Positions 1 to 21,380 of a DNA stretch of 21,808 nucleotides are shown one piece after another (position 1 is the stretch's first letter; each line of letters starts with the position of its first letter). Location of the stretch: the IMG/VR virus record IMGVR_UViG_2740892234_000019, one strand, 5' to 3'. The translations under genes and the position numbers were made by a program. The stretch is from a virus (taxonomy: Duplodnaviria > Heunggongvirae > Uroviricota > Caudoviricetes). Under the pieces are notes generated by a model. That model made no database searches. It saw only the letters and a list, made by a program, of their open reading frames with translations, and was not told the origin of the DNA.

Positions 1-318
1 TTGCCTCCCCCCCGTTGATGGGTAAAATAGCCGCAATTTTTCGTTTTCAACAAGCGCGGCGCGATGCCGCTTACTCAAGAAGAAAGAATTATGACGTTGT
101 CTCCTTATTTGCAAGAGGTGGCGAAGCGCCGCACTTTTGCCATTATTTCTCACCCCAATAATTAAGCCTAAATTAAAGCTCTTTTACTCTTTCAAAGTCC
201 TTTCAGTTAATTGAGTGCTAATCATATAACTCATTAATAACATGATGTTATGTGGTTTCTTTAATTGAAAATTCTTTCATGTAACTTTAAATCGATCAGG
301 TTGCTTTCATCAAAAATC

Positions 319-375
319 TGTACATGCGCTTGTACATAATGTACAAAACAGCAGAGGTGTTTTTTTATTTGTACA
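319..375. promoter_or_regulatory. Four TGTACA hexamers (319-324, 331-336, 340-345, 370-375) just upstream of the integrase start, including the inverted pair TTGTACA-taa-TGTACAA at 330-346
   Basis: Read directly from the sequence; the palindromic hexamer recurs 4 times within 57 bp at -66 to -10 relative to the int ATG. Function (operator or arm-type site) is inferred. Confidence 0.3.
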
Positions 376-384
376 AGGTGAGTA

Positions 385-1602
385 ATGGCGCTGTCTGATG
401 CGTGGTTGCGTTCAGTCGTTGGAAAGGAACGTGATAAGGTTTTGGTTAAATCCGATCGTGATGGTCTGTCTGTCAGAGTATCACCGAAAGGTCGCGTAGT
501 GTTCCAATATCGTTATCAATGGGCAGGGAAAGGTGAGCGCCTTGATATCGGAACTTACCCGGCAACTGGATTAAAAGAGGCCAGAGAAGAAGTTATCCGT
601 CTCCGTGGTGAACTCGAGTCAAACCGCAATCCACGATTAGTCAAGCAGGCTGAAAAACGAAAAGCTACTGAAGCCATGACGGTAGAGTCTGTGATCCGTG
701 CCTGGTATGAAGCATATTGTGTAAAAAATAAAAAAGGTTCTGAACAGATACTCCGCTCGTTTGAGCTGCACCTGTTCTCTAAAATCGGGAATATCCCTCA
801 CGATGCAGCTACATTGCATGATTGGTTAGAAGTCCTGGAGCCTCTTAGCACTAAGACTCCAGCAATAGCAGACCGATTGCTAATTAACGCAAAGCAGGCC
901 CATGTCTGGGCGTATAAGAGAAAGCTCATTGAAACTCGCCCGCTGTCGGATATCACGGGTAAAGATATGGATATCCGTAAAGGTCAGAAGAAACGGTTTC
1001 TGACACATGATGAAATTAAAATCCTTTATGCTGCGATCGATGGTTCTCGAATGGTTCCTAAATACCGGGCCTTCATTAAACTATTGCTGCATTTTGGCTG
1101 CCGTAGTTCAGAGCTAATTACCGCTAGGGTGGATGATTTTGATTTCATTAATAAGGTATGGACTGTACCGCCAGAACGACATAAGACAGGGGATATAACA
1201 GGCGAACCGCTAAAGCGCCCCATTATTGAACCGGTTGAAGAGCTTATAAAGTACGTTATCTCTATGAACAATGGTTCCGATATGCTTTTTACTAAGGAAG
1301 GAAGCAGGGAACCCGTTGGCCGGACATCATTGCAGTCGCTGCCTTACAATTTAATGCAGTACGCATGGCGGCGTTTGGGGTATCAATTCCCTCATTGGTC
1401 TCTTCATGATTTGAGACGAACAGCACGAACAAACTTTTCTGATCTTACTGCACCTCATATTGCAGAAATAATGCTCGGTCATAAACTGCCAGGGGTATGG
1501 CAGGTTTATGACAAGAGCGATTATTTAGATGAACAGCGTAAAGCTTACCAGGCATGGTGGGAGAGAGTTGAATCGATAGTTACTTGTACTTGTTCAGACT
1601 AG
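385..1602 (+). CDS. Phage tyrosine integrase, P4-like
   Basis: 405-aa ORF with AGGTGA RBS 5 nt upstream of ATG. Tyrosine recombinase signatures: GCRSSEL (Arg box), HDLRRTART (His/Arg box) and a C-terminal Tyr (VYDKSDY). Lies at the edge of the prophage. Confidence 0.9.
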   Translation: MALSDAWLRSVVGKERDKVLVKSDRDGLSVRVSPKGRVVFQYRYQWAGKGERLDIGTYPATGLKEAREEVIRLRGELESNRNPRLVKQAEKRKATEAMTVESVIRAWYEAYCVKNKKGSEQILRSFELHLFSKIGNIPHDAATLHDWLEVLEPLSTKTPAIADRLLINAKQAHVWAYKRKLIETRPLSDITGKDMDIRKGQKKRFLTHDEIKILYAAIDGSRMVPKYRAFIKLLLHFGCRSSELITARVDDFDFINKVWTVPPERHKTGDITGEPLKRPIIEPVEELIKYVISMNNGSDMLFTKEGSREPVGRTSLQSLPYNLMQYAWRRLGYQFPHWSLHDLRRTARTNFSDLTAPHIAEIMLGHKLPGVWQVYDKSDYLDEQRKAYQAWWERVESIVTCTCSD

Positions 1603-1735
1603 TACTGACATTTTGCATAGGCAGAACGCAATTATGCATATTGCGGTATAATCCCCTTCTTAAAACTGTAAGAATTGCTTGCTAATCCTTGCAGTTTTTG
1701 ATTATAACATTCTTATTTGTTTATTAGGATTTTTG

Positions 1736-3868
1736 ATGGAACTGTTACAGGAACACGGGGCGATACTTAAAGTTGTAATCATGCCTACTACTGGGGAACA
1801 AACCATAATCCAAGGTTTCGATACTGGCCTCCTCAACCCAGAGATATCCAACATTCTTTTTTTATTGGCCAAAACACCAAAAGAAATTAGTGAGATTTTT
1901 GTCAATGAAAATGATAACTTTCAGCCTACTCTAAGCGGGCTAAATCCTATTTTTTTAATATCTAAAGAAAATCTTGAAAAAATACCAAATATTTATCAAA
2001 CGCCATTTTGCTTAATTTTTTGTGCTAAAGAAGATTTTTCGTATGTTTGTGCTTTAAAAAAACATTTTGCTATACCACCTATAATTTGTTGCAATTCTAA
2101 ACGCGCTGATCTACCACTTAATAAGATTAATAGTATATACTCATTTGATAAGGTGCTCTTCTCTCGGTTGAAATTCATTGAGGATAAAATAAGAAAAAAT
2201 CACAGTGAAAAGAAAATATCAACGAAGTTGAAGCGAAGAGGGGCTTTATTTAATAAATCACCTTGGAGATCGACGCTTAACAATTCAACACTACCCAATG
2301 AGTTGTTAATTGAATCACTTGGCTATATGCTATCTCCACCAAAAAGAATTAAAGATGGTAGTAGCAAAAGAGAGTTTATAGAAATAATACTTCATAGCGT
2401 TGATGCATACACCGAATGTTTAAAGGAATTAGATATACCACTTCCAACGGAAGTCTTACTTTTTGCTCCGGGTATGCACTCTTTTTTATATGATAAAAAT
2501 AATGACTTTTATGAGTTAATAACGGAAAATTTATCCACAATTGAGAAAAAATTCCTTATTGATGGAGTGTTGAGGAATCCAGGCTATTCTGGAATTAGAC
2601 TTGATATAAATTCAGATAGAAAAGAACTTTTTAAAAGTCCTGCTTTCCGTTACCTCACCTCACTAAGACGCGCTGAAATGCGATTAACAACAGCTGCGAT
2701 TACTTTATTTAGCATAAATAAAAAAATCCCAGCAATAAGATTGCCAAATGCAATAAATCATTACTCCAATTATTTGAAAAATCTTGAAGATCTTGCAACT
2801 TCTTCTGGGATAAATAGTGAAGCATTCATCACTAAATCTAAAGCATTCAATACTGTTATTCGAAGAGCCCTTGGTTGCAAGTTGAGAACATATATAAGTA
2901 AAAACTATAGCGATTTGTCCTTTGTTTGTGATGTACCATTGGATTGGATTAGGTTTAATAACATACCTATAATGTTCAGTCATGAGATATCAAGAATAAA
3001 TGCTACGCCTGGTAACGTTCTTCTACAGAGCGCCTCTGCTTTTCCGCGCGTTTTAGTAAAAGCATCTGAGTTGAGAAAGGTTTTAGTTATACGTTCTTTT
3101 GAGCCTGATGATCACTTAAAGTTCATATTAGAGAACGCAATTGAGATATTTAAAAAACAGATGCCAGATCTTGATTGCGAGATTATTGATGTTAGATCGA
3201 AAGCTGAGTTTATTGATGCTCTAAATCAATATCAAGGTCATATTCTTGTTATGGATTGTCATGGAAACCATGATGGCAATGGGAGTCATGGATGGTTAAT
3301 AATAGGTGAGGATAAAGTGGACACTTGGAGTTTGAGAAAAATAGCAAGAATTCCTCCTATCGTAATTCTGAGTGCATGTTTAACATCTGCCCTAAGTGGT
3401 TCTCATGCCTCTGTTGCTAATGGCTTCGTTATAAGTGGTGCATTAAGTGTCATCGGAACATTACTGCCTGTAAATGCGATAGACTCTGCTGTTTTTGTAA
3501 GTCGGTTGATCTACCGGTTTTACGAGTTTCCTTCGACGCTATCTACAAATTTTACACATGTTAATGTAAGGCTTTTTCTTTCTGTTTTTCTTAGGATGTC
3601 CTATGCAAGCGATTTAATAAGAGGATTTTTATCTGAAGATTTGATACCGAATAATTCATGGAAGAAAGATGCAGTTGATATTAACATGTATATAAACATG
3701 CTTCACCATGATTGGTATGATTATGTAATTAACAAATTGACGATGTTAACGGGGCTCACGAAAAAAGATGTACTTGATTTTATCGATAGAAAATTATTCA
3801 TAACTGAAACTATGTGCTATAGCCAAATTGGATTTCCAGATGCAATCACAATTAGTCTTAAAGATTGA
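1736..3868 (+). CDS. Large AT-rich protein with C-terminal caspase-like (CHAT / peptidase C14 clan) domain; candidate stand-alone defence or abortive-infection effector
   Basis: 710-aa ORF from ATG 1736 (AGGA RBS 7 nt upstream; the track ORF starts at an upstream TTG 1679). Composition is visibly AT-rich compared with flanking phage genes. Caspase-fold dyad signature: GHILVMDCHGNHD, then about 38 aa later PPIVILSACLTSA. No Walker A motif; the N-terminal ~470 aa have no motif I can name. Confidence 0.7.
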   Translation: MELLQEHGAILKVVIMPTTGEQTIIQGFDTGLLNPEISNILFLLAKTPKEISEIFVNENDNFQPTLSGLNPIFLISKENLEKIPNIYQTPFCLIFCAKEDFSYVCALKKHFAIPPIICCNSKRADLPLNKINSIYSFDKVLFSRLKFIEDKIRKNHSEKKISTKLKRRGALFNKSPWRSTLNNSTLPNELLIESLGYMLSPPKRIKDGSSKREFIEIILHSVDAYTECLKELDIPLPTEVLLFAPGMHSFLYDKNNDFYELITENLSTIEKKFLIDGVLRNPGYSGIRLDINSDRKELFKSPAFRYLTSLRRAEMRLTTAAITLFSINKKIPAIRLPNAINHYSNYLKNLEDLATSSGINSEAFITKSKAFNTVIRRALGCKLRTYISKNYSDLSFVCDVPLDWIRFNNIPIMFSHEISRINATPGNVLLQSASAFPRVLVKASELRKVLVIRSFEPDDHLKFILENAIEIFKKQMPDLDCEIIDVRSKAEFIDALNQYQGHILVMDCHGNHDGNGSHGWLIIGEDKVDTWSLRKIARIPPIVILSACLTSALSGSHASVANGFVISGALSVIGTLLPVNAIDSAVFVSRLIYRFYEFPSTLSTNFTHVNVRLFLSVFLRMSYASDLIRGFLSEDLIPNNSWKKDAVDINMYINMLHHDWYDYVINKLTMLTGLTKKDVLDFIDRKLFITETMCYSQIGFPDAITISLKD

Positions 3869-3899
3869 CAACTGTATGTAATAAATATGGCATACTTCC

Positions 3900-3940
3900 G
3901 GCACAGAGCGAATATAACAGATCAGGTTTAGCTCTGTGCC
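3900..3940. repeat. 10-bp perfect inverted repeat (GGCACAGAGC ... GCTCTGTGCC) with a 21-nt loop, between the convergent CHAT and xis genes
   Basis: Read directly from the sequence. Could be a bidirectional terminator or a protein-binding site; no clear T-run. Confidence 0.3.
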
Positions 3941-3975
3941 ATAGGTGTACCAACTCTCATCTGAGCTAATGCTCG

Positions 3976-4170
3976 TTACTCAATAACTCCCGCAAATTTG
4001 TAAATCTTGCGTGATGCCCATTTATTTGGGCATGATTTAATATCAGGATCTGGAAAGTCTGGCCTGTATTTCTGGCCAGTTCTCCTGTTTACGCTGTTCC
4101 AGCGAAGAACTGTCGATACTGAAACTCCACAGAAGTTGGCGACTTGTTTAGTTGTCATTAAGTTGTTCAT
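3976..4170 (-). CDS. Excisionase-like small HTH DNA-binding protein (Xis/AlpA-like)
   Basis: 64-aa ORF whose start overlaps the upstream stop (translational coupling). Motifs STVLRW ... DFPDPD ... KIYKF resemble the excisionase-type winged helix. Lies at the int-proximal end of the leftward operon. Confidence 0.55.
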   Translation of the reverse strand: MNNLMTTKQVANFCGVSVSTVLRWNSVNRRTGQKYRPDFPDPDIKSCPNKWASRKIYKFAGVIE

Positions 4171-4790
4171 TACTTTACCTCCTGCGGCGGCTCCGGTAGC
4201 GGCATCCAGTGGGTTACTTTCGATGCCGGTTCTTCCACATCGTCAGTAACTGCCCACCATTTGTTTCTCGACCAATCGTAATACCCTTCGAAGGTATCGC
4301 ACTCAGTCCAGCCGTAAGACTTCCCCCAACACCAAACATACTGTTTATCGTTCGGCATTCGCTCACTACAGCTTATCCAACCATCCGGAGTTACCGGAGA
4401 GTTGCCCGACAGCTCGTTCAACTTGTAAGTCTGGCTTACAGGTTTGGCACCATGAAGCATGGCGGCGCGGCAGGCGTTCCAGCCTTCATCAAAGCCGACT
4501 ATGCCATTATTTAAAGACGGAAGAGCATCCGGCACCACCGACACTGGCTGAGCCATATATAGCGGCTGAACATACCAGCCCTTTGATAACCAACTGTCAG
4601 CAATGTTTTTGCTCCTGGTTATTGCCGGAATACCTAAGCCATTGTCTGAATGAAGCCACGCCACCGGCTCTGCTTCCAGTGATGCCAGAGCAATTTCATA
4701 AGCAAGGCGCTCAACATTGTCTCGCACGTCTAGGCTGCCGATTCGTTCTTTGATTTCTTTAATCTGTTCCTTATCGGTGTAAGTGGTCAT
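4170..4790 (-). CDS. Phage protein with C-terminal DUF551-like motif
   Basis: 206-aa ORF; C-terminal W/C-rich segment ending THWMPLPEPP, as in DUF551 phage proteins; start overlaps the upstream stop. Confidence 0.6.
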   Translation of the reverse strand: MTTYTDKEQIKEIKERIGSLDVRDNVERLAYEIALASLEAEPVAWLHSDNGLGIPAITRSKNIADSWLSKGWYVQPLYMAQPVSVVPDALPSLNNGIVGFDEGWNACRAAMLHGAKPVSQTYKLNELSGNSPVTPDGWISCSERMPNDKQYVWCWGKSYGWTECDTFEGYYDWSRNKWWAVTDDVEEPASKVTHWMPLPEPPQEVK

Positions 4791-5152
4791 TATGCTCCAG
4801 CCTCCGGTGCTTTTGGCATTACTGCCCAGTGAGTGATATTAATATTTTCAAGGTCCCCGATCTGAAATGTCCACTGCCATTCTCCGGTTTCTTTTTGTCC
4901 CCAGGTGTACCAGAGAGAACGCCAGCCAATCAGCCAGCCTTCTCCGTTAGCATCAAATAACAGAACACTTTCATTTGCTGGTGGCAGTTCAACTGATACT
5001 GGTATTACTTTGTTTTCCTGTGCTGCACATTTAGCTTCAAGCGCATCGAATTTACGCACCAGGTATTCAGCATCCGTTTCATTCACTTTCAGGTCTCGTG
5101 GTACACATCTCCCGTGAAGAAACCCTTCCATTTCGAAAACATTCATGCGCAT
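4790..5152 (-). CDS. Phage protein, DUF551-like (yfdS-like position and length)
   Basis: 120-aa ORF ending THWAVMPKAPE; overlaps the stop of the upstream HD-domain gene (ATG at 5152 or 5146). Confidence 0.55.
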   Translation of the reverse strand: MRMNVFEMEGFLHGRCVPRDLKVNETDAEYLVRKFDALEAKCAAQENKVIPVSVELPPANESVLLFDANGEGWLIGWRSLWYTWGQKETGEWQWTFQIGDLENINITHWAVMPKAPEAGA

Positions 5153-5679
5153 TTGCGTAACTCCGATAACTCGTTAAAACGTTCCATAAACATCCCGTAG
5201 GCATGGCCCGGAGCCAGTGGAATAACTTTGAACATCTCTGTTGCCGGGATACCTTCCAGTACTGGCCAGAAAGAGCCATCATCAAGCCCGAGATCGCGGC
5301 GTTCAGTTGCCAGCATGATGAGATCGGCATATTTCACAGGCGTGCTCATAACCGGGGGTAACCCGTATTTCTCACGGATTACGGCGTCTATTTTTTCTTC
5401 CATCCGTTTATAGTCAGGAAGAAGGCGTTTCAGTGGTGCGGGAATGTCCTGGCAATACGCTTCTGTTGCATCATGCATTAACGCTTCAAAAGCAAATTCC
5501 TGCGGTACCAGCTGGCTGCAAAGCACCGCATGTTGGGCGACGCTGTAGAAGTGTGAAAGATGTCCTGCAAAGCGACAGATATTTGAAAGGGAAACCGCGA
5601 TATCGTTAATCACGATGTCGTCTTTATTTATCTTGTCATAATAAAAATGCTTCCCAGAAAAAGTTTTAATAAATGACAT
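5143..5679 (-). CDS. yfdR: HD-domain phosphohydrolase (5'-deoxynucleotidase YfdR-like)
   Basis: 178 aa from ATG 5679 (MSFIKTF...), with GGAGAA RBS 5 nt upstream. HD-domain His and His-Asp motifs (VAQHAVL, ALMHDATEAY). Length and neighbourhood match my recollection of the CPS-53 yfdPQRS block; the symbol is from memory, not a search. Confidence 0.65.
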   Translation of the reverse strand: MSFIKTFSGKHFYYDKINKDDIVINDIAVSLSNICRFAGHLSHFYSVAQHAVLCSQLVPQEFAFEALMHDATEAYCQDIPAPLKRLLPDYKRMEEKIDAVIREKYGLPPVMSTPVKYADLIMLATERRDLGLDDGSFWPVLEGIPATEMFKVIPLAPGHAYGMFMERFNELSELRKCA

Positions 5680-5812
5680 TTTGTTCTCCACGTATATGTG
5701 CTGCACCACGCTGAATTCTGGTAAAAGGAAGCCCTCACCATCCGGCGATTATTGAGTCGATTATGTTTCCATAAATGCCCCCGCAGGGGCATTTGCAGTA
5801 ATGAAATCAGGC

Positions 5813-5822
5813 NNNNNNNNNN
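5813..5822. other. Assembly gap (N x10)
   Basis: Run of N. Right flank 5823-6123 is a ~95% identical copy of 5506-5812. Confidence 0.95.
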
Positions 5823-5996
5823 CACCAGCTGGCTGCAAAGCACCGCATGTTGGGCGACGCTGTAGAAGTGAGAAAGATGACCGGCAAAGCGACAGATATT
5901 TGAAAGGGAAACCGCGATATCGTTAATAACGATGTCATCTTTATTTATCTTGTCATAATAAAAATGCTTCCCGGAAAAAGTTTTAATAAATGACAT
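5823..5996 (-). pseudogene. Partial second copy of the yfdR-like 5' end (MSFIKTF... start at 5996), truncated at the gap; contig-overlap or paralog artefact
   Basis: Sequence nearly identical to 5506-5679 but with point differences; ends at the N-run. Confidence 0.5.
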
Positions 5997-6123
5997 TTTG
6001 TTCTCCACGTATATGCGCTGCACCGCGCTGAATTTGGGTAAAAGGAAGCCCTCACCATCCGGTGATTATTGAGTTAATTACGTTTCCATAAATGCCCCCG
6101 CAGGGGCATTTGCAGTAATGAAA

Positions 6124-7144
6124 TCAGGCGGTGAAAGTACCAATAAAGGTTTCTACTTTGCTGTCTTTGAATTTCTCAACAAGCAGATCACGAAATTCGT
6201 TAGCCATTTCTTCCTGCACCGCTTCCAGCTGAATAATGCGCAGAACCAGTACAGGACGATCGCCAGTGATAATGCTGAGGCGTAATTTAAACGGACGTTC
6301 TTTCAGACCTTCAAACGGAACGCATTTAAATTCAAATGCCACTGGCATAATGTCTTTGGTCTTCGCTTCGACAGATTCCATCAGGGAGCGTTTGCCGCTG
6401 AAGTCATTATCTTCAAAATCAGCGGTCTGGTTTGCTTCAATCGTGATTTTACGGATTGCCGCAGCCGCTTTTGTTGCCTGAATGGCGCCACCATTAGCAT
6501 CAAAGCCCACAAGGTAGTCGGCCCAGTCTTCAATCCATTCTGCCAGNNNNNNNNNNTTTCGCTTCGACAGACTCCATCAGAGAGCGTTTGCCGCTGAAGT
6601 CATTATCTTCAAAATCAGCGGTCTGGTTCGCTTCAATCGTGATTTTACGGACCGCCGCAGCCGCTTTTGTTGCCTGAATGGTGTCACCATTAGTATCAAA
6701 GCCCACAAGGTAGTCGGCCCAGTCTTCAATCCATTCTGCCAGTGATTTCTGGGAGTTACGCTCGCCGTTAACAGACAACAGGGCAGAGAACGGTGCTGTC
6801 TTTTTCAGTTTGAGAGTGGCGGTGTTATCTGCGTGACCTGGTTCATCAATAGTACCCAGGTTAAGCACACTGACGGCACGCATATTATCAGCATCGATAA
6901 AGCAGCGGGTGCCTTCATCTGCAAGATCTTTAGAATAACGGGTAAAGTCATCGATGCTGGCAGTGGAAAGCGCACCACGGAAACGGAAGCGATTTAAATT
7001 AAATTTTTCCAGATCATGAATGCGGAAATTCTCAGGCAATGCCACAGCATCGGCACCAATCTTACTGATAATTTCATTAACACCCTGAGCAGAAATAAGG
7101 GCATGGATTTGATTAATTGCGGTTGCGTCTAAGTTCTGAGACAT
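6124..7144 (-). CDS. Phage protein, yfdQ-like; interrupted by gap and diverged duplicate
   Basis: Track ORFs 6530-7144 and 6124-6510 are the N- and C-terminal parts of one protein. 6557-6742 duplicates 6361-6546 with mismatches. Removing the overlap gives about 274 aa. Family not recognised beyond position. Confidence 0.55.
6547..6556. other. Assembly gap (N x10)
   Basis: Run of N flanked by a ~186-bp diverged duplicate. Confidence 0.95.
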
Positions 7145-7209
7145 AATAAGTCCTCACTATATAAAGATATTCAGTGATGAGATAAATAATCAGTTAATTA
7201 AGAACGATA

Positions 7210-7572
7210 TTAATGACCTGCTGCGCGTAGTTTTCCGTCAGGTTCACCGGCAAGAGTCAGTAATTGTCCCTGGTCTGCCTGCAGAATAGTCAGGCGACCA
7301 CCGCGATTGACATACATCGGTGTTTCGGTGGTGTCTTCTTCGGAAATTTTCCCGCGGTTAGTCGGGCGAACATATGAGAGTTTGTGTTTGATTTTCACAC
7401 GGTTCTCATCAAATGGTTCGATTTCCAGGTTGAGTGAGACCTTACCTTTGGTTTTCGTGTTCATCACACCGGAAGCGACTTCACTGAGAACTGCGCCGAT
7501 TTTGGTTTCAAATACGCCGCCGTCCAGCTCCCCGATAAATGCCTGCACATCAGTACTGCGTTCGCTAGCCAT
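7210..7572 (-). CDS. Small phage protein, first gene of the leftward early operon (yfdP-like)
   Basis: 120 aa from ATG 7572 (MASERSTD...), with GAGGAG RBS 7 nt upstream. The track ORF extends further upstream without RBS support. Confidence 0.55.
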   Translation of the reverse strand: MASERSTDVQAFIGELDGGVFETKIGAVLSEVASGVMNTKTKGKVSLNLEIEPFDENRVKIKHKLSYVRPTNRGKISEEDTTETPMYVNRGGRLTILQADQGQLLTLAGEPDGKLRAAGH

Positions 7573-7913
7573 TTTGCTGCTCCTCATCATATCGACCCTG
7601 CAAGGTCGGTTGGTTTCTCCACAAAACAGAGAAGAACACCTGCGGTGGCAGCCGCCCGGATGGATTGGGTTATGAGCCCGTCGTCCGGTGATGCTCTTCT
7701 CTGTTTTGTAAAAAGAGCGGTACCAGCCGGAAGCAAGTGTACAAACTGGTACCGCCAAAGCAGTGGCTGTTGTGGTGACCGGTGCTGATCTCCGGCTTGC
7801 GGTTATTTCAGACTCTCACGGGCGTTTAATTGCCCCGCCGAACAGCTCTTTTCCGCAATAGCTGCAATGTCTTTCGCGCATCAGCCTGCGCATTCACCAC
7901 AACTCTAAAAACA

Positions 7914-7967
7914 AATGTAGGATATCCAACATGTGAGTGTCAAGAGTTTATGTTGGTTATCCTACAT
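7914..7967 (-). promoter_or_regulatory. pL-like leftward promoter with two operator sites
   Basis: Minus-strand -35 TTGACA (7938-7943), 18-nt spacer, -10 TACATT (7914-7919). Operators ATGTAGGATATCCAACAT (7915-7932) and ATGTTGGTTATCCTACAT (7950-7967). The 7915 site is the exact reverse complement of the OR site at 8729. Confidence 0.55.
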
Positions 7968-7983
7968 AAAAAGATAGGCTCAT

Positions 7984-8005
7984 AAAAAAACCGGGGATAC
8001 CCCGG
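7984..8005 (-). terminator. Rho-independent terminator downstream of the repressor gene
   Basis: CCGGGG-ata-CCCCGG hairpin; on the minus strand it is followed by a 7-T run (plus-strand A run 7984-7990). Confidence 0.6.
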
Positions 8006-8029
8006 TTTTGCGATAGTGAGGAAGATGTG

Positions 8030-8683
8030 TCAAAAATCCATTATTACTTGTTTGACAAGACCAACTATTCTGCAGTTCTCACCGCATTCAATAGTTTTAT
8101 AGTTAGGATTTAGTGGGACGAGATACCTGTTCGGCCAGTCCTCAACAAATTTTTTGAGTGTCGCTTCTTGCCCACCATTGATATGGGCAACAACGATTTT
8201 TCCGTTAATACACTCTGTATCAATAATATCTGGCTCTACGATAACGATAGAACCTTCTGGTATCGATGGTGAGCCGAGGGGATTGGTCATTGAATCACCA
8301 CGGACCCGTAGTGCAAATGCCATTTCTGATACAAGGGCGGTAGTATAAACCCACTCTTCAGCATCTTCTTTCCTGACACCAGGCTCCGTCATTGTCCATG
8401 AACCCGCCTGAACCCACGAGATGAGGGGGACTTTTTTAACTGCGAATATTTCAGGTTTTAGATTTATCTTTGGTTCAGGCGAGCCTTTTCCGCTAACAAG
8501 CCACAGAGGATCGCATTTAAGTGCGTTGGCTAGGGCTTGAAGGTTGGCTCCATTTGGTTGGTAGTCGTCCTTTTCCCATCCAGTAACCGTGACACGGTTC
8601 ACACCAGTCAAATCAGCCAGTGCTTGTTGTGTCAGGTTCAGTTCTTTTCGCCTTTGGCGAATACGATCACTCATGTTCATCAT
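8030..8683 (-). CDS. CI-type prophage repressor (N-terminal HTH, C-terminal S24 LexA-like peptidase domain)
   Basis: 217 aa. HTH region LTQQALADLTGVNRVTVTGWE; Ala-Gly candidate autocleavage site (VQAGSW); S24 catalytic Ser in VRGDSMTNP and a downstream Lys (LKKF). Divergent from the cro-like gene. Start may be ATG 8683, 8680 or 8674. Confidence 0.85.
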   Translation of the reverse strand: MMNMSDRIRQRRKELNLTQQALADLTGVNRVTVTGWEKDDYQPNGANLQALANALKCDPLWLVSGKGSPEPKINLKPEIFAVKKVPLISWVQAGSWTMTEPGVRKEDAEEWVYTTALVSEMAFALRVRGDSMTNPLGSPSIPEGSIVIVEPDIIDTECINGKIVVAHINGGQEATLKKFVEDWPNRYLVPLNPNYKTIECGENCRIVGLVKQVIMDF

Positions 8684-8747
8684 GTAGGCAATCCTACCAC
8701 ATGCCTATGTAAGATTCTTGACATTGGTATGTTGGATATCCTACATT
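8682..8747 (+). promoter_or_regulatory. OR region: two operator sites and pR-like promoter for the cro-like gene
   Basis: Operators ATGTAGGCAATCCTACCA (8682-8699, overlapping the repressor start codon) and ATGTTGGATATCCTACAT (8729-8746). -35 TTGACA 8718-8723, 18-nt spacer, -10 TACATT 8742-8747. Confidence 0.6.
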
Positions 8748-8778
8748 TCTGCTTAACGTAATTTAACGGGAGACAGAA

Positions 8779-8976
8779 ATGCGGAAATCCGACGTGATTA
8801 ATTATTTCGGCGGAGTTTGTAAAACCGCCGAAGCCCTAGGTATTAAGCATCCGTCTGTTTCAGAGTGGCCTGAGATTATTCCTGAAGGCCGAGCGTACCA
8901 GTTAGAAAAAATTACTAACGGGAAACTGAAAGTTGACGTGTCTTTATATCAAAAGACTAACAGTGCTGCGGCATAA
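8779..8976 (+). CDS. Cro-like small regulator
   Basis: 65-aa ORF with GGGAGA RBS, divergent from the repressor and immediately downstream of the pR-like promoter. Assigned by position and size rather than by motif. Confidence 0.55.
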   Translation: MRKSDVINYFGGVCKTAEALGIKHPSVSEWPEIIPEGRAYQLEKITNGKLKVDVSLYQKTNSAAA

Positions 8977-9003
8977 AAACACCACAGAAATGAGGAATTA
9001 ACC

Positions 9004-9588
9004 GTGGGTAAAGAACCTGAATGGAAAGTTGATAAACAACCAGCATGGCTGGTGGCAGCAATACGAAGAACGATTGCTGATTTACCTCATGGCTATGAGG
9101 AAGCAGCAGAAATTCTTGGTTTGTATAAATCTGATGATATCACCCCAGCAAAAGATCAATTGCATAACAGACTGCGTAGCGGTGGGGATCAAATTTTTCC
9201 ACTTGAGTGGGCCATGGTTTTACAGGATGCCAGTGGTACCAGGCATGTAACAGATGCAATAGCCCGTCGTAGTAATGGGGTGTTTGTGCCGCTGGTGGTC
9301 ATTGATGACATTGACAATGGTGACATTAATCAGCGGCTGATGGAGTCAATAGAATGGATTGGCAAGCATTCCCAGTACTTACGCAAGGCAACTGCTGATG
9401 GAGTTATTGACCAGGCTGAGCGTGAGCAAATCGAAGAGAACAGCTACCAAGTAATGGCGAAGTGGCAGGAGCATTTAACACTGTTATTTCGTGTTTTTTG
9501 TGCACCGGAAAAGAGTAACGCCCGCGAGTGTGCAGCTCCGGGCGTCGTGGCGTCGATTGCTTCTGGTTGTGGAGAAACTAACGCATGA
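9004..9588 (+). CDS. Phage regulatory protein, possibly CII-like (YdaT/CP76-like)
   Basis: 194-aa ORF with GTG start and GAGGAA RBS 5 nt upstream; sits in the cII position after cro. Family assignment is tentative. Confidence 0.45.
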
Positions 9589-9923
9589 ACAGTTTAACAA
9601 CACACTACCGTCGCTCGCAACTGATTGCGCTTCCTGTACCGGGTGGAAAAGCGAAGGTGGAGTATTGCTATGCAGTGAATGTACCAGGTGACAGGGAAAT
9701 TGTAACCCACAGCTTTGCAGAGTGGGCTGTGGGTGATTTCAACCGGCAGAAGGAGACAGTCCTTTGCGACAAGTTAACCGCTGGTTCAAAGATCACTACG
9801 GAGTGCCCGTCAGAGTCATTCGTTGGGAGCCGGAAACACAACGGGTTATCTACCTCCGTGAAGGCTATGAACATGAATGCTTCAGTCCGCTCGAACAGTT
9901 TCGTCGTAAATTCAGGGAAATAG
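9585..9923 (+). CDS. Hypothetical protein (first of an overlapping pair; possible frameshifted gene)
   Basis: ATG overlaps the upstream stop (ATGA). The N-terminal ~60 aa look protein-like; the C-terminal part is Ser-rich and overlaps 9764-9976 in another frame. Confidence 0.3.
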
Positions 9924-9976
9924 AGGTCGGTCATGAGCCTGTTAATGACATCCCAGCCCATTGTGATAAATCGTGA
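9764..9976 (+). CDS. Hypothetical small protein
   Basis: TTG start preceded by AGGAGA 7 nt upstream; charged, W-containing, protein-like sequence. Confidence 0.35.
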
Positions 9977-10925
9977 TCTTGCATGCCGTATTGGTCTGAA
10001 TGAGGCAATTGTGTTGCAGCAGCTTCATTACTGGCTGAATGAAACGAATTCAGGCACTGAGCATGGCGGAATTCGCTGGGTTTATAACACGACAGAACAG
10101 TGGCTGGAGCAGTTTCCGTTCTGGTCAGAGTCCACTCTGAAACGCACATTTGCAAGCCTGAAATCACTTGGGGTTTTGCGTCGCGAGCAACTCAATAAAT
10201 CGAAGCGTGACATGACCAACTTCTACACGATCAACTATGAAAGTGAGCTTTTAGAAGAGGTCAAAGTGAACGAATCCATCAGGTCAAAATGCACTTCTCC
10301 ATCGGGTCAAAGTGACCTGATGGATGGGCGCAAAATGACACGATCCATTGGTTCAAAACGACACGCTGTCATCGGGTCAAAATGGCCCAATGATCTTACA
10401 GAGAATACAACAGAGATTACTACAGAGAATAAAACCTCTTCTCGTCCGGACGCTTCGCAACCGGACACGCAAACGGCTGAACAGGAGTTTTTAACTCGCC
10501 ATCCTGATGCGGTTGTATTCAGCCCTAAAAAGCGCCAGTGGGGAACGCAGGATGATTTGACCTGCGCACAGTGGCTCTGGAAAAAAATCATCGCCCTGTA
10601 CGAGCAGGCCGCCGAATGTGACGGCGAGGTGGTTCGTCCCAAAGAACCGAACTGGACAGCATGGGCAAACGAAATTCGCCTGATGTGTGTGCAGGATGGT
10701 CGTACTCACAAACAAATCTGCGAGATGTACAGCCGCGTCAGCCGCGATCCGTTCTGGTGCCGTAACGTGCTCAGCCCGTCGAAGTTGCGGGAAAAATGGG
10801 ATGAGCTTTCCCTGCGCTTATCGCCGTCCGTCAGCACGCACACAGAAAAACGTGAAGACCCGTACTTCAAAGCCAGTTACGACAACGTGGACTACAGCCA
10901 GATCCCGGCAGGATTCAGGGGGTGA
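9933..10925 (+). CDS. Phage replication initiation protein, O-like (replisome organizer)
   Basis: 330-aa ORF in the O position with AGAGG RBS. Contains an internal iteron array followed by an AT-rich stretch, the classic lambdoid ori-inside-O arrangement. Confidence 0.65.
   Translation: MSLLMTSQPIVINRDLACRIGLNEAIVLQQLHYWLNETNSGTEHGGIRWVYNTTEQWLEQFPFWSESTLKRTFASLKSLGVLRREQLNKSKRDMTNFYTINYESELLEEVKVNESIRSKCTSPSGQSDLMDGRKMTRSIGSKRHAVIGSKWPNDLTENTTEITTENKTSSRPDASQPDTQTAEQEFLTRHPDAVVFSPKKRQWGTQDDLTCAQWLWKKIIALYEQAAECDGEVVRPKEPNWTAWANEIRLMCVQDGRTHKQICEMYSRVSRDPFWCRNVLSPSKLREKWDELSLRLSPSVSTHTEKREDPYFKASYDNVDYSQIPAGFRG
10257..10386. repeat. Origin-of-replication iterons (five copies of about CATCRGGTCAAARTG)
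   Basis: Direct repeats at about 10257, 10277, 10299, 10347 and 10369, followed by an A-rich segment 10390-10435. Confidence 0.6.
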
Positions 10926-10927
10926 TC

Positions 10928-11020
10928 ATGAGTCTGTTAAATGACGTTCAGAAATTCATTGAAGCCCATCCGGGCTGTACTTCCGGAGACATTGCGGATG
11001 CTTTTTACGTGGGGGCTTAA
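10928..11020 (+). CDS. Small hypothetical protein (30 aa), translationally coupled
   Basis: ATG 10928 with AGGGGG RBS; its stop overlaps the Dam ATG (TAATG). Not in the track because it is shorter than 60 aa. Confidence 0.3.
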   Translation: MSLLNDVQKFIEAHPGCTSGDIADAFYVGA

Positions 11021-11631
11021 TGAGTAATAAATATTGCCAGGCGCTGGTAGAACTGCGGAACAAACCAGCCCATGAACTGAAGGAAGTGGGCGATCAGTGG
11101 CGCACGCCGGACAACATTTTCTGGGGAATTAACACCCTGTTTGGCCCGTTTGTTCTGGATCTGTTCACCGACGGTGATAACGCCAAATGTGCCGCGTATT
11201 ACACGGCGGAAGACAATGCGCTGGCGCATGACTGGTCAGAACGTCTTGCGGAGCTTAAAGGTGCTGCCTTTGGTAATCCCCCATACAGCCGCGCCAGTCA
11301 GCATGAGGGGCAATACATCACCGGCATGCGTTACATCATGAAACATGCCAGTGCCATGCGTGATAAGGGCGGGCGCTATGTTTTCCTGATCAAAGCTGCC
11401 ACCAGCGAAGTGTGGTGGCCGGAAGATGCAGATCATATTGCTTTTATTCGCGGGCGTATTGGTTTTGAAGTGCCTGCCTGGTTTATCCCGAAAGACGAGA
11501 AGCAGGTGCCGACAGGCGCTTTCTTCGCTGGTGCTATTGCTGTTTTCGATAAGACCTGGAAGGGACCGGCAATCAGCTACATCGGGCGCGATGAACTTGA
11601 GGCATGTGGTGAGGCGTTTCTGGCGCAGGTT
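11020..11631 (+). CDS. Phage DNA N6-adenine methyltransferase (Dam family, PF05869-like); 3' end lost in gap
   Basis: Motifs DQWRTPDNIF, LDLFTDGDNAKCAAYYT and catalytic NPPY (AFGNPPYSRA). The ORF runs into the N gap at 11632. Confidence 0.75.
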
Positions 11632-11641
11632 NNNNNNNNNN
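11632..11641. other. Assembly gap (N x10)
   Basis: Run of N. Confidence 0.95.
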
Positions 11642-11921: not shown

Positions 11922-11931
11922 NNNNNNNNNN
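11922..11931. other. Assembly gap (N x10)
   Basis: Run of N. Confidence 0.95.
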
Positions 11932-12677: not shown

Positions 12678-12828
12678 CGGAATTGAGCAACACCCTAAAT
12701 TTGGGTATTACCTCGTTAAAGATACTGTATTTATGAACAGTGTATCCTTGATAACTATTAAAAATCGCAGTAAGTTCATCTTGCATCAACGAAAAGGGAG
12801 TGCAGTCCCGAAATTTGTGGAGAAACCA

Positions 12829-13644
12829 ATGAATCAGTTGCTTGTAATTGATGGCGTTTCTGTGCGCCAGTACTTTGAATCTAACTACTGTCTTAACGAC
12901 CTTCAGAAAGCTGCTCTTCTTGCCGCTGGTGAGAATCGCTCCTCCCGTTCGCTGGAAGTTCACGAGTTTATGCGTCGTCCTGAAACGAAGGCTCTTGTGG
13001 AATTACTGGAAGAAGAAACTACGGGAGATTCCCGTAGTATTCCTGTCATCACCATTCAGGGGCGCAATGGTGGGACGTATGTCTGTAAAGAGCTGGTCTA
13101 TGCATATGCAATGTGGATCAGCCCGGCATTCAGCTTAAAAGTGATACGTACTTTTGATGCGCTTCATAATTCATCACCAGAAGAAACCACATCCGACAAA
13201 ATTAAATCCGGGGTCATTCTGCTTGAATCAGCAGCAAAGACTCTAAATCTGTCAAACTCCTCGAAACTTGGTGCATACCAGAAATTATCAAAGGTAGCAG
13301 GTCTTCCTGAACTTATGCCGAGCTATGCCATTGATGCACCTGCTGATGCGCCAGATGGTTCAAGCCGCCCGACACTGTCACTGAGTGCACTGCTGAAACA
13401 GTATGGTATACGCCTGACGGCTAATCAGGCATATCACCAGATGGTGAAACTGGGGATCGTCGAGCAGCGCGAACGATACAGCCGTACCGCGATTAACAAC
13501 ATCAAAAAATTCTGGTCGCTGACAGCGAAAGGTTGCATGTTCGGCAAGAACATCACCAGTCCTGCAAATCCGCGCGAGACGCAGCCGCATTTCTTCGAAT
13601 CCCGATTCCCTGAGCTGTTAAAGCTGCTCGATACCGTTCACTGA
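12829..13644 (+). CDS. KilA-N domain protein (antirepressor-like)
   Basis: ATG 12829 with GGAGAA RBS. N-terminal segment ...GTYVCKELVYAYAMWISPAFSLKVIRTF resembles the KilA-N/APSES fold. AT-rich leader. Confidence 0.55.
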   Translation: MNQLLVIDGVSVRQYFESNYCLNDLQKAALLAAGENRSSRSLEVHEFMRRPETKALVELLEEETTGDSRSIPVITIQGRNGGTYVCKELVYAYAMWISPAFSLKVIRTFDALHNSSPEETTSDKIKSGVILLESAAKTLNLSNSSKLGAYQKLSKVAGLPELMPSYAIDAPADAPDGSSRPTLSLSALLKQYGIRLTANQAYHQMVKLGIVEQRERYSRTAINNIKKFWSLTAKGCMFGKNITSPANPRETQPHFFESRFPELLKLLDTVH

Positions 13645-14184: not shown

Positions 14185-15174
14185 TTGAGAGCACTGCTGA
14201 CCCCTGAAATTGCCCCGCGTATGGGGATCGTCTTGTTCAGACCAGGTTCAGAGCTGATGCCCCTGTTTATGCAGGGGCGTGTCCTGCTGGAGCCTGAGCC
14301 GGAACGTTATTCATCTTTTGCCAGTGGTGCCGTTCCGGCAGCATCACAACCGCTGGCGGATGATCCTGCCGTTCGGGCCGTGTTCCGCCATGAGGCGGTG
14401 ATCCGTCGTGCTGGTGGCGTGGAATGTCTTGAAAGCTGGTTACTTCGTGAAAAAGGCTGCCAGTGGCCTCATTCCGACTGGCACAGCGAGAACATGACCA
14501 CAATGCGACACGCTCCGGGCGCAATCCGTCTGTGCTGGCACTGCGATAACCAGCTGCGCGATCAGTTCACGGAACGGCTGGAAGCAATGGCAACGGATAA
14601 CTGTGCCCGCTGGGTGTTGTCTGTTGTGCGTCGGGATCTCGGTTTTGATGATAGTCACGTTGTGACAATGCCGGAACTGTGCTGGTGGCTGATTCGTAAT
14701 GACCTGGCGTATGCCTTACCGGAAAGTGCAGCCCGTAAGGCACTGAGATTACCGAAGCNNNNNNNNNNGTCTGTCACCCGGGAAAGTGACCTTGTGCCTT
14801 CGGTTACTGCCACCAGCATCATCCAGGATAAGGCGAAAAAGGTGCTGGCGCTGAAAGTGGATCCGGAGTCGCCGGAGTCTTTTATGTTACGCCCCAAACG
14901 TCGTCGCTGGGTTAATGAAAAGTACACGCGCTGGGTTAAGACACAGCCTTGCGCGTGTTGTGGTAAGCCAGCCGACGATCCACATCACCTGATTGGCCAT
15001 GGTCAGGGTGGAATGGGTACAAAAGCGCATGACCTTTTTGTGTTGCCTTTGTGCAGAAAACACCATGACGAACTGCATGCGGATACCGTGGCATTTGAAG
15101 AGAAGTATGGTTCCCAACTGGAGCTGATATTTCGTTTTATCGATCGCGCGCTGGCGATTGGTGTGCTGTCCTGA
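14185..15174 (+). CDS. DUF968-like protein with C-terminal HNH/zinc-finger-like motif; contains an assembly gap
   Basis: C-terminal CACCGKPADDPHHLIGHG ... LCRKHHDELH. The frame across the gap at 14759-14768 is not trustworthy; TTG start is uncertain. Confidence 0.5.
   Translation: MRALLTPEIAPRMGIVLFRPGSELMPLFMQGRVLLEPEPERYSSFASGAVPAASQPLADDPAVRAVFRHEAVIRRAGGVECLESWLLREKGCQWPHSDWHSENMTTMRHAPGAIRLCWHCDNQLRDQFTERLEAMATDNCARWVLSVVRRDLGFDDSHVVTMPELCWWLIRNDLAYALPESAARKALRLPKXXXXSVTRESDLVPSVTATSIIQDKAKKVLALKVDPESPESFMLRPKRRRWVNEKYTRWVKTQPCACCGKPADDPHHLIGHGQGGMGTKAHDLFVLPLCRKHHDELHADTVAFEEKYGSQLELIFRFIDRALAIGVLS
14759..14768. other. Assembly gap (N x10)
   Basis: Run of N; no flanking duplicate noticed. 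Confidence 0.95.
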
Positions 15175-15787: not shown

Positions 15788-16285
15788 ATGCTGAAACAGC
15801 AGGATATGACAGAAACCGCCAGAGTGGTGTTTAATGAATTANNNNNNNNNNTCAGTTAATACTGACCCAACTATCAGCGGGGTGAACTGGAAAAGCCACA
15901 TCACCAACTGGTCAGCACATACAGTGAGCTGAACCGGCAGTATACGGAACTGCTGAGTGAATATAAAAATTTGCGGCGGTATTTCGGTGTGACGGTGCAG
16001 GTGCCGTACACCGATGTGTGGACGTATAAACCGGTGCAGTACTATCCAGGGAAACATCCGTGCGAAAAACCGGCAGAAATGCTGCGGCAGATAATCTGCG
16101 CGAGCAGTCGTCCGGGTGACCTGGTGGCGGATTTTTTCATGGGTTCTGGCTCAACCATAAAAGCAGCTATGGCGCTCGGGCGTCGTGCAACTGGTGTTGA
16201 ACTGGAGGCAGAACGTTTTGCGCAGACCGTTAAGGAGATTAGTCACATCCTTACATGCTCAATTGATGACGGGAAGGATGGATAA
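15788..16285 (+). CDS. DNA methyltransferase (beta-class N6A/N4C, PF01555-like); interior lost in gap
   Basis: C-terminal part carries HPCEKP and FFMGSGST (motif I FxGxG) and ends at 16285. An 18-codon N-terminal piece (15788-15841) precedes the gap at 15842-15851. The true gene must be longer than drawn. Confidence 0.55.
15842..15851. other. Assembly gap (N x10)
   Basis: Run of N. Confidence 0.95.
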
Positions 16286-20372: not shown

Positions 20373-20992
20373 ATGAGCAGGAAATTCCGCTATGGTTTAT
20401 CAGCGGTAGTTCTGGCGCTGATTGCCGCAGGTGCTTCTGCGCCTGAAATCCTCGACCAGTTTCTGGATGAAAAGGAAGGCAACCACACCACGGCATACCG
20501 TGATGGTGTGGGTATCTGGACCATCTGCCGTGGAGCCACCCGGGTGGATGGTAAGCCTGTTATTCCTGGCATGAAGCTGTCGAAGGGGAAATGCGACCAG
20601 GTTAACGCCATTGAGCGTGATAAGGCGCTGGCATGGNNNNNNNNNNGATTCCTGGCATGAAGCTGTCGAAGGAAAAATGCGACCGGGTTAACGCTATCGA
20701 ACGGGATAAGGCGCTGGCATGGGTGGCGAAGAACATCAGAGTGCCACTGACTGAACCCCAGAAAGCGGGTATTGCGTCATTCTGTCCTTACAACATTGGC
20801 CCAGGTAAGTGTTTCCCGTCGACGTTTTATAAACGAATTAATGCAGGAGATCGAAAAGGTGCCTGCGAAGCGATTCGCTGGTGGATTAAGGACGGTGGCA
20901 GAGACTGCCGTATTCGCTCAAATAACTGTTATGGTCAGGTCTCACGGCGTGACCAGGAGAGCGCGCTGGCGTGCTGGGGAATTGACAGATAA
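20373..20992 (+). CDS. SAR endolysin (T4-lysozyme-like, phage 21 R-type); interrupted by gap and diverged duplicate
   Basis: N-terminal signal-anchor-release segment GLSAVVLALIAAGASA; catalytic E-D-T region DEKEGNHTTAYRDGVGIWTICRGAT. 20647-20716 repeats the ~75 bp before the gap with mismatches, so the frame shifts across the junction. Confidence 0.8.
20637..20646. other. Assembly gap (N x10)
   Basis: Run of N flanked by a diverged duplicate. Confidence 0.95.
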
Positions 20993-21370: not shown

Positions 21371-21380
21371 NNNNNNNNNN
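21371..21380. other. Assembly gap (N x10)
   Basis: Run of N. Confidence 0.95.

Follow-up and report, generated by a model that had tools for sequence, protein, structure and literature searches.

Positions 7914 to 8747 of the IMG/VR record IMGVR_UViG_2740892234_000019, a virus of the Caudoviricetes, hold a repressor gene flanked on both sides by palindromic sites and divergent promoters. The questions raised by this locus are which kind of genetic switch it encodes and whether the switch is intact. The whole stretch of 21,808 nucleotides, referred to here as the window, had previously been read from its letters and open reading frames (ORFs) without database searches; this sequence-only reading described the locus as a complete, lambda-style switch with four operators that looked functional rather than decayed. 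Our analysis indicates that the region is very probably the immC-type bistable immunity switch of a lambdoid Escherichia coli prophage, built on the plan of phage P22 and with five predicted operators. It is an ordinary lambdoid immunity region: the P22-type kind is known, and this member is experimentally uncharacterised. A full-text literature search returned no characterisation of the switch and no experimental description of its operators.

Operators, promoters and repressor of the immunity region

Four strong 18-bp palindromes were found around the repressor gene (cI), with the consensus ATGTWGG-N4-CCWACAT (7-bp half-sites and a 4-bp centre). The left operators (OL) are OL1 (ATGTAGGATATCCAACAT, 7915-7932), which covers the spacer of the leftward promoter pL and 5 nt of its -10 hexamer, and OL2 (ATGTTGGTTATCCTACAT, 7950-7967), which lies upstream of the pL -35. 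On the right (OR), OR3 (ATGTAGGCAATCCTACCA, 8682-8699) reads TGGTAGGATTGCCTACAT on the cI strand, where it ends in the A and T of the cI ATG, and OR1 (ATGTTGGATATCCTACAT, 8729-8746) lies in the spacer and -10 of the rightward promoter pR. OL1, OL2 and OR1 were each identified from the sequence, by motif scan and by position weight matrix (PWM). The centres of OL1 and OL2 (7923.5 and 7958.5) are 35 bp apart, and the distance from OL1 to OR1 is 814 bp. Scanning the window with ATGTWGGNNNNCCWACA at up to 2 mismatches gave 9 strand-matches, 8 of which were the four strong sites. Dinucleotide shuffles gave a mean of 1.6 matches, and 0 of 100 reached the observed count. The PWM built from the sites scored them at 20.6-29.4 bits, and nothing in the rest of the 21.8-kb window exceeded 7 bits.

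A fifth and weaker site, OR2 (ATGTAAGATTCTTGACAT, 8707-8724), lies over the pR -35. It was placed at this position because the conserved OR geometry of related phages predicts a site there, and by comparison of alleles (both described below). The half-site on the cI side has 6 of 7 matching positions and the one on the cro side, which carries the pR -35, has 4 of 7; this asymmetry, with the better half-site on the cI side, is common to all six relatives compared. Together the OR sites occupy 65 bp (8682-8746); from centre to centre, OR1 and OR2 are 22 bp apart and OR2 and OR3 25 bp. The PWM scan of the window found no third OL site and no site downstream of pL of the kind seen in phage 733R5; the stretch matching the third-OL position holds the cI terminator.

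Both early promoters were returned by a consensus promoter scan, each with 10 of 12 consensus matches. The pR promoter (8718-8747, + strand) consists of TTGACA at 8718-8723, inside OR2, an 18-nt spacer and TACATT at 8742-8747, with a predicted start near 8754. On the - strand, pL (7943-7914) consists of TTGACA at 7943-7938, an 18-nt spacer and TACATT at 7919-7914, with a predicted start near 7907. The two are alike in build, with OR1 or OL1 occupying the spacer and -10, and the layout of pL is that of the annotated P22 pL.

A putative promoter for repressor maintenance (PRM, 8719-8691, - strand) would have its -35, AAGAAT (8719-8714), in OR2 and its -10, TAGGAT (8696-8691), in OR3, separated by a 17-nt spacer, and would start near 8685 to give a 2-nt leader. 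It was placed by position from the GenBank annotation of P22-pbi, in which the promoter reads AGGAAT-17-TAAGAT and starts 4 nt before the ATG. Both hexamers fall in columns that are invariant among the alleles described below, and the variable gap falls in the PRM spacer, a pattern that fits the assignment without proving it. An alternative -10, TACATA (8710-8705), was rejected because it is TACATG in most alleles, with polymorphism at 8705 and 8706. Also dropped was a leaderless, lambda-like start at Met4, which fits the spacing from OR2 in the window (41.5 bp) and not that in P22 (49.5 bp). The cI gene is followed by an intrinsic terminator read from the sequence (7984-8009, - strand; CCGGGG-TAT-CCCCGG and T7), and an equivalent hairpin and T-run follows the repressor gene in all the relatives.

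The cI gene itself (8683-8030, - strand) encodes a cI/c2-type repressor of 217 aa, with the Pfam domains HTH_3 (residues 8-62, 1.1e-15) and Peptidase_S24 (3.7e-25). The protein aligned with lambda CI (3bdn) over residues 9-210 (E = 7e-25), the C-terminal domain giving E = 1e-22, and with the N-terminal domain of P22 C2 (1adr and 3jxb, E = 4e-14). P22 C2 is its closest characterised full-length relative, at 44% identity by tblastn and 43% by MAFFT. The predicted cleavage site A93-G94 (VQAG, residues 91-94) aligns with the VQAG of lambda CI, and the putative dyad of S131 (GDSM) and K178 (LKKF) aligns with the GNSM and KK motifs of that protein; A93, G94, S131 and K178 are invariant in 7 homologues. 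These results support the prediction of a CI-type, SOS-cleavable repressor located between divergent, operator-guarded early promoters. At cI codon 4 (8674-8672) a Met is kept two residues before (D/E/T)RIR in all seven aligned repressors, and this Met may have a structural role or mark an alternative start.

Divergent from cI is cro (8779-8976, + strand), which encodes a 65-aa protein of the P22_Cro family (Pfam 7.6e-22) that aligned along its whole length with 1rzs, the structure of P22 Cro (E = 7e-12). No C1- or lambda-CII-type activator was found next to cro. The gene there (9004-9588, + strand, 194 aa) belongs to the YmfL/CP76/phrog_101 family, with matches to Phage_CP76 (1.3e-6) and to phrog_101, 'CII-like transcriptional activator' (3.4e-62), and the RefSeq name 'YmfL family'. 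By analogy with YdaT of CP-933P (PMC8630535), its product may act as an activator. An O-like replication initiator gene comes after it, and the first genes leftward from pL are yfdP, yfdQ (DUF2303) and yfdR.

Most of what the sequence-only reading had said of individual features was borne out. The four near-palindromes at 7915, 7950, 8682 and 8729 have the positions and sequences it gave, the 7915 site reads as the exact reverse complement of the 8729 site, and the 8682 site overlaps the repressor start, sharing 2 nt with the ATG (8683-8681). The divergent TTGACA-N18-TACATT promoters pointing away from the repressor gene, which it had described, were returned independently by the promoter scan, and the Ala-Gly site and S24 Ser/Lys motifs are present in an S24 domain whose residues align with those of lambda CI. 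The same four sites stood out in the motif scan that it had suggested. It had counted four operators, however, where we find five, having missed the weak OR2.

Conserved geometry and allele variation

Seven switches, oriented with the repressor on the + strand, were compared: those of the window and of YeP1, mEp390, 733R5, AH07, ZF40 and P22, whose repressors are 65, 61, 51, 50, 45 and 43% identical, respectively, to that of the window. Each switch region was scanned with its own half-site at a threshold that also passes a few extra weak matches, and the choice of the middle site (OR2) in the relatives was steered by the P22 annotation. On this basis the OR1-OR2 spacing of the window recurs in YeP1 and is 23 bp in mEp390, 733R5, AH07, ZF40 and P22, and the OR2-OR3 spacing is 25 bp in every one of the relatives. 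OL2 and OL1 are 35 bp apart in YeP1, mEp390, 733R5 and P22, as in the window, and 34 and 33 bp apart in AH07 and ZF40. The three P22 OR sites exactly tile the annotated 66-bp C2-binding region OR1-OR2-OR3. In the window and the five closer relatives the ACAT that ends OR3 is followed directly by G, so that the operator supplies bases of the repressor start codon; in P22, OR3 abuts the c2 ATG. All seven phages have the pL -35 in the interval from OL2 to OL1 and a pL -10 that shares bases with the end of OL1.

The half-sites differ among these switches together with the recognition helix of the repressor. ATGTAGG occurs with the helix (N/S)RVTVTGWE in the window, YeP1 and mEp390, ATGTAAC with SRV(S/T)(V/I)TKWE in 733R5, AH07 and ZF40, and ATTTAAG with SNVAISQWE in P22. 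This co-variation across 7 phages supports the prediction that the palindromes are the repressor's own sites.

Allele comparison gave an independent footprint of the operators. An OR set chosen irrespective of the operators contained 8 alleles: that of the window, plus those of two phages and of five E. coli genomes spaced evenly along the BLAST ranking. Variable columns in this set were confined to the OR3-OR2 gap, the OR2-OR1 gap and the positions downstream of the -10. In the 7 other alleles OR2 reads ATGTAGGATTCTTGACAT, with a perfect half-site, from which the window differs at A8712. Adding IMG/VR contigs brought the set to 74 homologous sequences, of which 33 are distinct; since an OR2 19-mer was used to select the viral rows, these are uninformative on OR2 and unbiased for OR1, OR3 and OL. 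Among the 33 distinct alleles, 9 of 11 gap columns vary, with a mean minor-allele fraction of 0.18-0.23. The half-sites of OR1 and OR3 vary in 2 of 28 columns (1 of 14 each, singletons), and the pR hexamers are invariant.

The OL set comprised 69 sequences, 25 of them distinct. Among these distinct alleles, 4 of the 5 columns between OL1 and the pL -35 vary, while the pL -35 varies in 0 of 6 columns and the OL1 half-sites in 2 of 14, both singletons. In the OL2 half-sites 6 of 14 columns vary, and the only non-singletons are the two degenerate W positions. Taken together, the columns point to purifying selection that acts on each of the five operators and leaves the intervening gaps free to vary. 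The population data were decisive for accepting the weak OR2 as a predicted fifth operator in addition to the four strong sites.

A diverged sub-lineage of contigs (L050, L057, L064, L074, L079 and L085) has a different leader and different gaps and keeps OR1, OR2, OR3, OL1 and the pL -35 unchanged. The stem of its cI terminator carries compensatory changes (CCGAGC..GCTCGG). OL2 is flipped in 4 of the 6 members (L050, L057, L064 and L085), and in L050, L057 and L085 it is the exact reverse complement of the window OL2, as would be expected of a palindrome bound by a dimer.

A8712 occupies position 6 of the strong OR2 half-site, usually ATGTAGG, where G is found in 72 of the 74 homologous sequences. 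The A allele (2 of 74) is also present in E. coli 2013C-3264 and in IMG/VR contig L018, which rules out a sequencing error. Over OR, only one of 142 E. coli records reaches 99% identity with the window. Because mEp390, with the same recognition helix, uses ATGTAAG half-sites in three of its operators, the G to A change may only weaken binding, and a mild weakening of repression is the likely effect.

Proposed mechanism, rival explanations and the pL leader

The sites, promoters, domains, conserved geometry and repressor-operator co-variation described above suggest how the switch would work. Dimers of the repressor would bind the 18-bp palindromes. At OR1 in the pR spacer and -10, and at the weak OR2 on the pR -35, they would jointly silence cro, the CII-like gene and the replication genes. 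Since the PRM -10 and start lie within OR3, which also reaches the cI ATG, OR3 would repress PRM at high repressor levels, capping repressor synthesis (autoregulation). OL1 would occlude pL with assistance from OL2, 35 bp upstream, and the terminator after cI would insulate the pL operon. Cro would be expected to act on the same sites and lock the lytic state. Upon DNA damage, RecA-stimulated self-cleavage at Ala93-Gly94 via Ser131 and Lys178 would lead to prophage induction. We infer the binding order, the position of PRM and the cleavage; by extension from lambda and P22, repressor at OR2 would activate PRM, binding would be cooperative, and OL and OR would loop together across the 814 bp.

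Several observations weigh against this explanation. No third OL site or CIII was found, nor an N gene or nut site that would carry early-left transcription past a hairpin in the pL leader. The position of OR2 right on the PRM -35 sits awkwardly with activation of the lambda kind, and in the window copy OR2 is mutated and has a cro-side half-site that matches at only 4 of 7 positions. The closest copy in a complete genome, that of 2013C-3264, is in a prophage with a frameshifted terminase, and the window copy may likewise serve a defective prophage. The literature search turned up no measurements of DNA binding, transcription or cleavage for this repressor.

An exact copy of the 1.3-kb region is found in E. 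coli 2013C-3264, where it belongs to a prophage adjoining yjjG, and 140 of 5426 complete E. coli genomes (~2.6%) cover at least 80% of it. The region is 99.5-99.8% identical in Stx2c-converting phages (Stx, Shiga toxin), the Stx1 phage Lys8385Vzw, 720R4 and SKA5, and the repressor is 100% identical in Lys8385Vzw, 720R4, SKA5 and three Stx2c phages. Mitomycin C at 0.5 ug/ml induced Lys8385Vzw, whose switch is 99.5% identical and whose repressor is identical, and the phage was plaque-purified (PMC7946995); the same report named its repressor 'LexA family' and listed Cro, CII and N as absent. Homology with heteroimmune phages (mEp460 and Stx2a phages) ends at 7903, at the predicted pL start, and judging from these comparisons this edge is a classic mosaic boundary of the immunity cassette.

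One rival explanation accepts the switch as real and places it in a cryptic prophage, where it would be kept for superinfection immunity or silencing, with the G to A change in OR2 reflecting relaxed selection or adaptation. We consider this possible, although we lean away from it. The sole complete E. coli genome with the exact OR allele, 2013C-3264, has several partial prophage genes besides the frameshifted terminase, the allele is as rare as noted above (2 of 74 sequences, 1 of 142 records), and the window is a scaffold with eight N-gaps. The repressor, cro, promoter hexamers and four operators are nevertheless intact and identical to those of inducible, plaque-forming phages, and, judging by the mEp390 half-sites, the repressor may tolerate the OR2 change. 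Defects seen in 2013C-3264 are not transferable to the window, whose right half differs from that genome. The view of the sequence-only reading that the switch looks functional rather than decayed calls for one qualification, the rare substitution that OR2 carries in this copy.

A different route to induction is offered by a KilA-N (phrog_129) ORF at 12733-13644 (+ strand), with a probable ATG start near 12829. If this gene encoded a LexA-controlled antirepressor that inactivates CI, as in Gifsy or with Tum of 186, SOS induction would proceed mainly through it and not through self-cleavage, which we judge unlikely. Some 87 nt before the likely start there is a LexA box, TACTGTATTTATGAACAGTG (12723-12742), preceded by a promoter-like TTGAGC-17-TATTAC, and this module (12684-12850) is present in six IMG/VR contigs carrying the same immunity region. 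The six copies are identical, however, and cannot count as independent evidence of conservation. No match came from a strict search for LexA boxes with at most 3 mismatches; the box at 12723, which differs from the 20-mer LexA consensus at 4 positions, was located with CTGT-N8-ACAG, for which one chance match is expected in 26% of shuffles. In the 2013C-3264 copy the KilA-N gene is present with no such box, the PHROG label for the family is transcriptional regulator and not antirepressor, and the repressor keeps every residue required for autocleavage. The module may encode an SOS-controlled antirepressor or regulator, and we treat it only as a lead. In contig L042, which has the same immunity region, a different LexA box, TACTGTAAAAATAAACAGTG (3308-3326), precedes a gene with a DPPY methyltransferase motif, and LexA boxes may be common in the late-early region of these prophages.

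It was also considered that cro and the CII-like gene could form a YdaS/YdaT-type toxin-antitoxin pair, with the palindromes as its autoregulatory operator. This was rejected as barely credible. Cro does match the Pfam family YdaS_toxin, at 31.6 bits against a cut-off of 30, but its P22_Cro score is far higher (77.3 bits) and it aligns with 1rzs over its whole length. Operators also flank the repressor on the pL side. YdaS and YdaT of the E. coli O157:H7 element CP-933P have themselves been found experimentally to be Cro and CII analogues, not a toxin-antitoxin pair (PMC8630535).

The P22-plan switch proposed here leaves the pL leader to be accounted for. This leader of 335 nt (7907-7573, - strand) precedes yfdP and contains no N-like gene. 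Its hairpin (7717-7755) has a 10-bp perfect stem and is followed by a T-tract (7710-7716), TCTTTTT on the transcribed strand, which makes it terminator-like; a long-range fold of the leader gave z = -2.3. No - strand ORF of more than 49 aa was found between pL and yfdP, and the small ORFs there have no Pfam match. A 24-aa arginine-rich ORF (7826-7900) was rejected as an N protein: it is too short, has no family match and overlaps a plp remnant. There was no boxA-like match between 1245 and 12522, an interval spanning the whole switch, and no CIII was found. Rfam searches of the whole window at gathering thresholds and of 7400-9100 at permissive settings returned no credible RNA family, the sole match being a sub-threshold Termite-leu over the cI terminator. 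With no N-like gene, boxA/nut or CIII, and with a CII-like gene of YmfL/CP76 type, the description of this lambda-style switch as 'complete' was overstated.

An antitermination role for the leader is pure conjecture. Homologues of the leader are 94-100% identical, too alike to show covariation. Across the window and its relatives, three unrelated conserved leader modules follow pL. A module with CATCAACAGCGAACAGGCAGGACGCCC is found in YeP1, AH07 and ZF40, with a related form, CATCAACAGCGGACAG, in the diverged sub-lineage, and the module GGTGTGGTAGTGAGCATTACGGCATATGGCACATGTGCCGCAGCGG is found in 733R5, with a near-identical variant in mEp390. An extra operator-like site lies downstream of pL in 733R5 (L004, 2266-2283). 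A joint hypothesis, which we hold to be a long shot, is that the N-less, P22-type switches of this widespread group pass the hairpin at 7710-7755 by a new type of cis RNA or by factor-independent antitermination, and that the OR2 A allele is a natural operator-down variant altering prophage stability or the induction threshold in pathogenic E. coli.

The leader is also a mosaic. A 136-bp stretch in 7763-7903 (+ strand) is 98.5% identical to the 3' end and downstream sequence of the plp lipoprotein gene of P1-family phages (RCS47, P1 and JL22), and an ORF at 7763-7861 (+ strand) resembles a C-terminal plp remnant lying antisense within the leader. In 720R4 and SKA5 positions 7757-7819 are replaced by ~720 bp with small + strand ORFs, and this spot looks like a hotspot for morons or recombination.

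As to the window as a whole, eight runs of exactly 10 N (5813-5822, 6547-6556, 11632-11641, 11922-11931, 14759-14768, 15842-15851, 20637-20646 and 21371-21380) show that it was scaffolded from contigs. The yfdQ region occurs again, as a 96% variant copy overlapping its neighbours, in segment 5823-6546, and the split or duplicated yfdQ ORFs (6124-6510 and 6530-7144) are therefore an assembly artefact. Positions 1-11631 match the yjjG-adjacent prophage of 2013C-3264 (L001) at 99.8-99.9%, while the sequence beyond 11632 (nin-like and late regions) is 83-98% similar or rearranged. Because the right half differs, the window is a mosaic relative of that prophage and not the prophage itself. Between the integrase gene (385-1602) and the early-left genes, a 729-aa CHAT-domain protein is encoded at 1679-3868 (+ strand), a candidate cargo or defence gene.

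In public records this immunity type is labelled only 'LexA family protein' and 'Cro/CI family regulator'. With five operators, the promoters and a specificity class defined, immunity grouping and induction, and hence Shiga toxin release, become testable predictions, and reporters can be designed. The seven phages form a natural series on specificity change in P22-type repressors, in which the geometry is fixed and three half-site classes track two or three recognition-helix residues. The OR2 mutation provides a ready-made natural operator variant.

Comparison with known immunity switches

HK022, an N-independent lambdoid phage with put RNAs, resembles the window in having no N-type antiterminator gene and a structured leader directly after pL. 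It differs in the leader itself, since a side-by-side reading of the window leader and putL revealed no similarity, and no Rfam family matched.

The PaaR2/YdaS/YdaT region of CP-933P shares with the window a Cro-like and CII-like pair facing the repressor and 18-bp palindromes, which there lie in an intergenic region of ~97 bp; a leaderless repressor mRNA and a promoter, PRE, activated by the CII analogue have been shown experimentally in that system (PMC8630535). Unlike the window repressor, PaaR2 has no CI similarity and no S24 domain. A toxin-antitoxin pair is embedded in the CP-933P region, and the operator consensus there is a different one, GTTTAGTAA.

Likeness to lambda is seen in the C-terminal domain of the repressor, its cleavage site and Ser/Lys dyad, in the divergent pL and pR, and probably in a maintenance mRNA that is leaderless or nearly so. 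In lambda, OR1 lies in the pR spacer and -10 and OR2 at the pR -35, as in the window. The operators of lambda are 17 bp long, compared with 18 bp in the window, and unrelated in sequence; lambda has three OL and three OR sites, and the window two and three, with OL and OR ~2.4 kb apart in lambda and ~0.8 kb apart here. The window lacks N/nut, cIII and rexAB, yfdP is its first pL gene, and the N-terminal domain of its repressor is closer to P22 C2 than to lambda CI. The lambda-style label of the sequence-only reading thus suits the core CI-type design; the geometry comparison assigns the architecture to the P22 immC type.

With P22 immC the window shares operators of 18 bp, in which 7-bp half-sites (AT-T-A--G) flank a 4-bp centre, an OR of 65-66 bp with OR3 at the repressor ATG, a terminator after the repressor gene, an OL2-OL1 spacing of 35 bp with the pL -35 in between, and a Cro of the same Pfam family. 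The specificity is different: the half-site is ATGTWGG with the helix RVTVTG in the window, and ATTTAAG with NVAISQ in P22. The window pR is moved by about one operator towards cro, placing OR1 in its spacer and -10 and OR2 on its -35; in the P22 promoter it is OR2 that occupies the whole spacer, with OR1 over the start. Gene 24 (N), nutL and nutR of P22 have no counterpart in the window, the activator is of YmfL/CP76 type and not C1, and no third OL site was found.

The nearest relatives in specificity are mEp390 and YeP1, for whose immunity regions the literature search found no experimental work. Both have the half-site class ATGTAGG/ATGTAAG, the helix (N/S)RVTVTGWE and the same geometry as the window. 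Their repressors are 61-65% identical to that of the window (65-74% in the N-terminal domain), and several operator positions differ, such as ATGTCAG in YeP1. Because the OR3 of mEp390 is identical to that of the window, partial cross-immunity between the two is possible.

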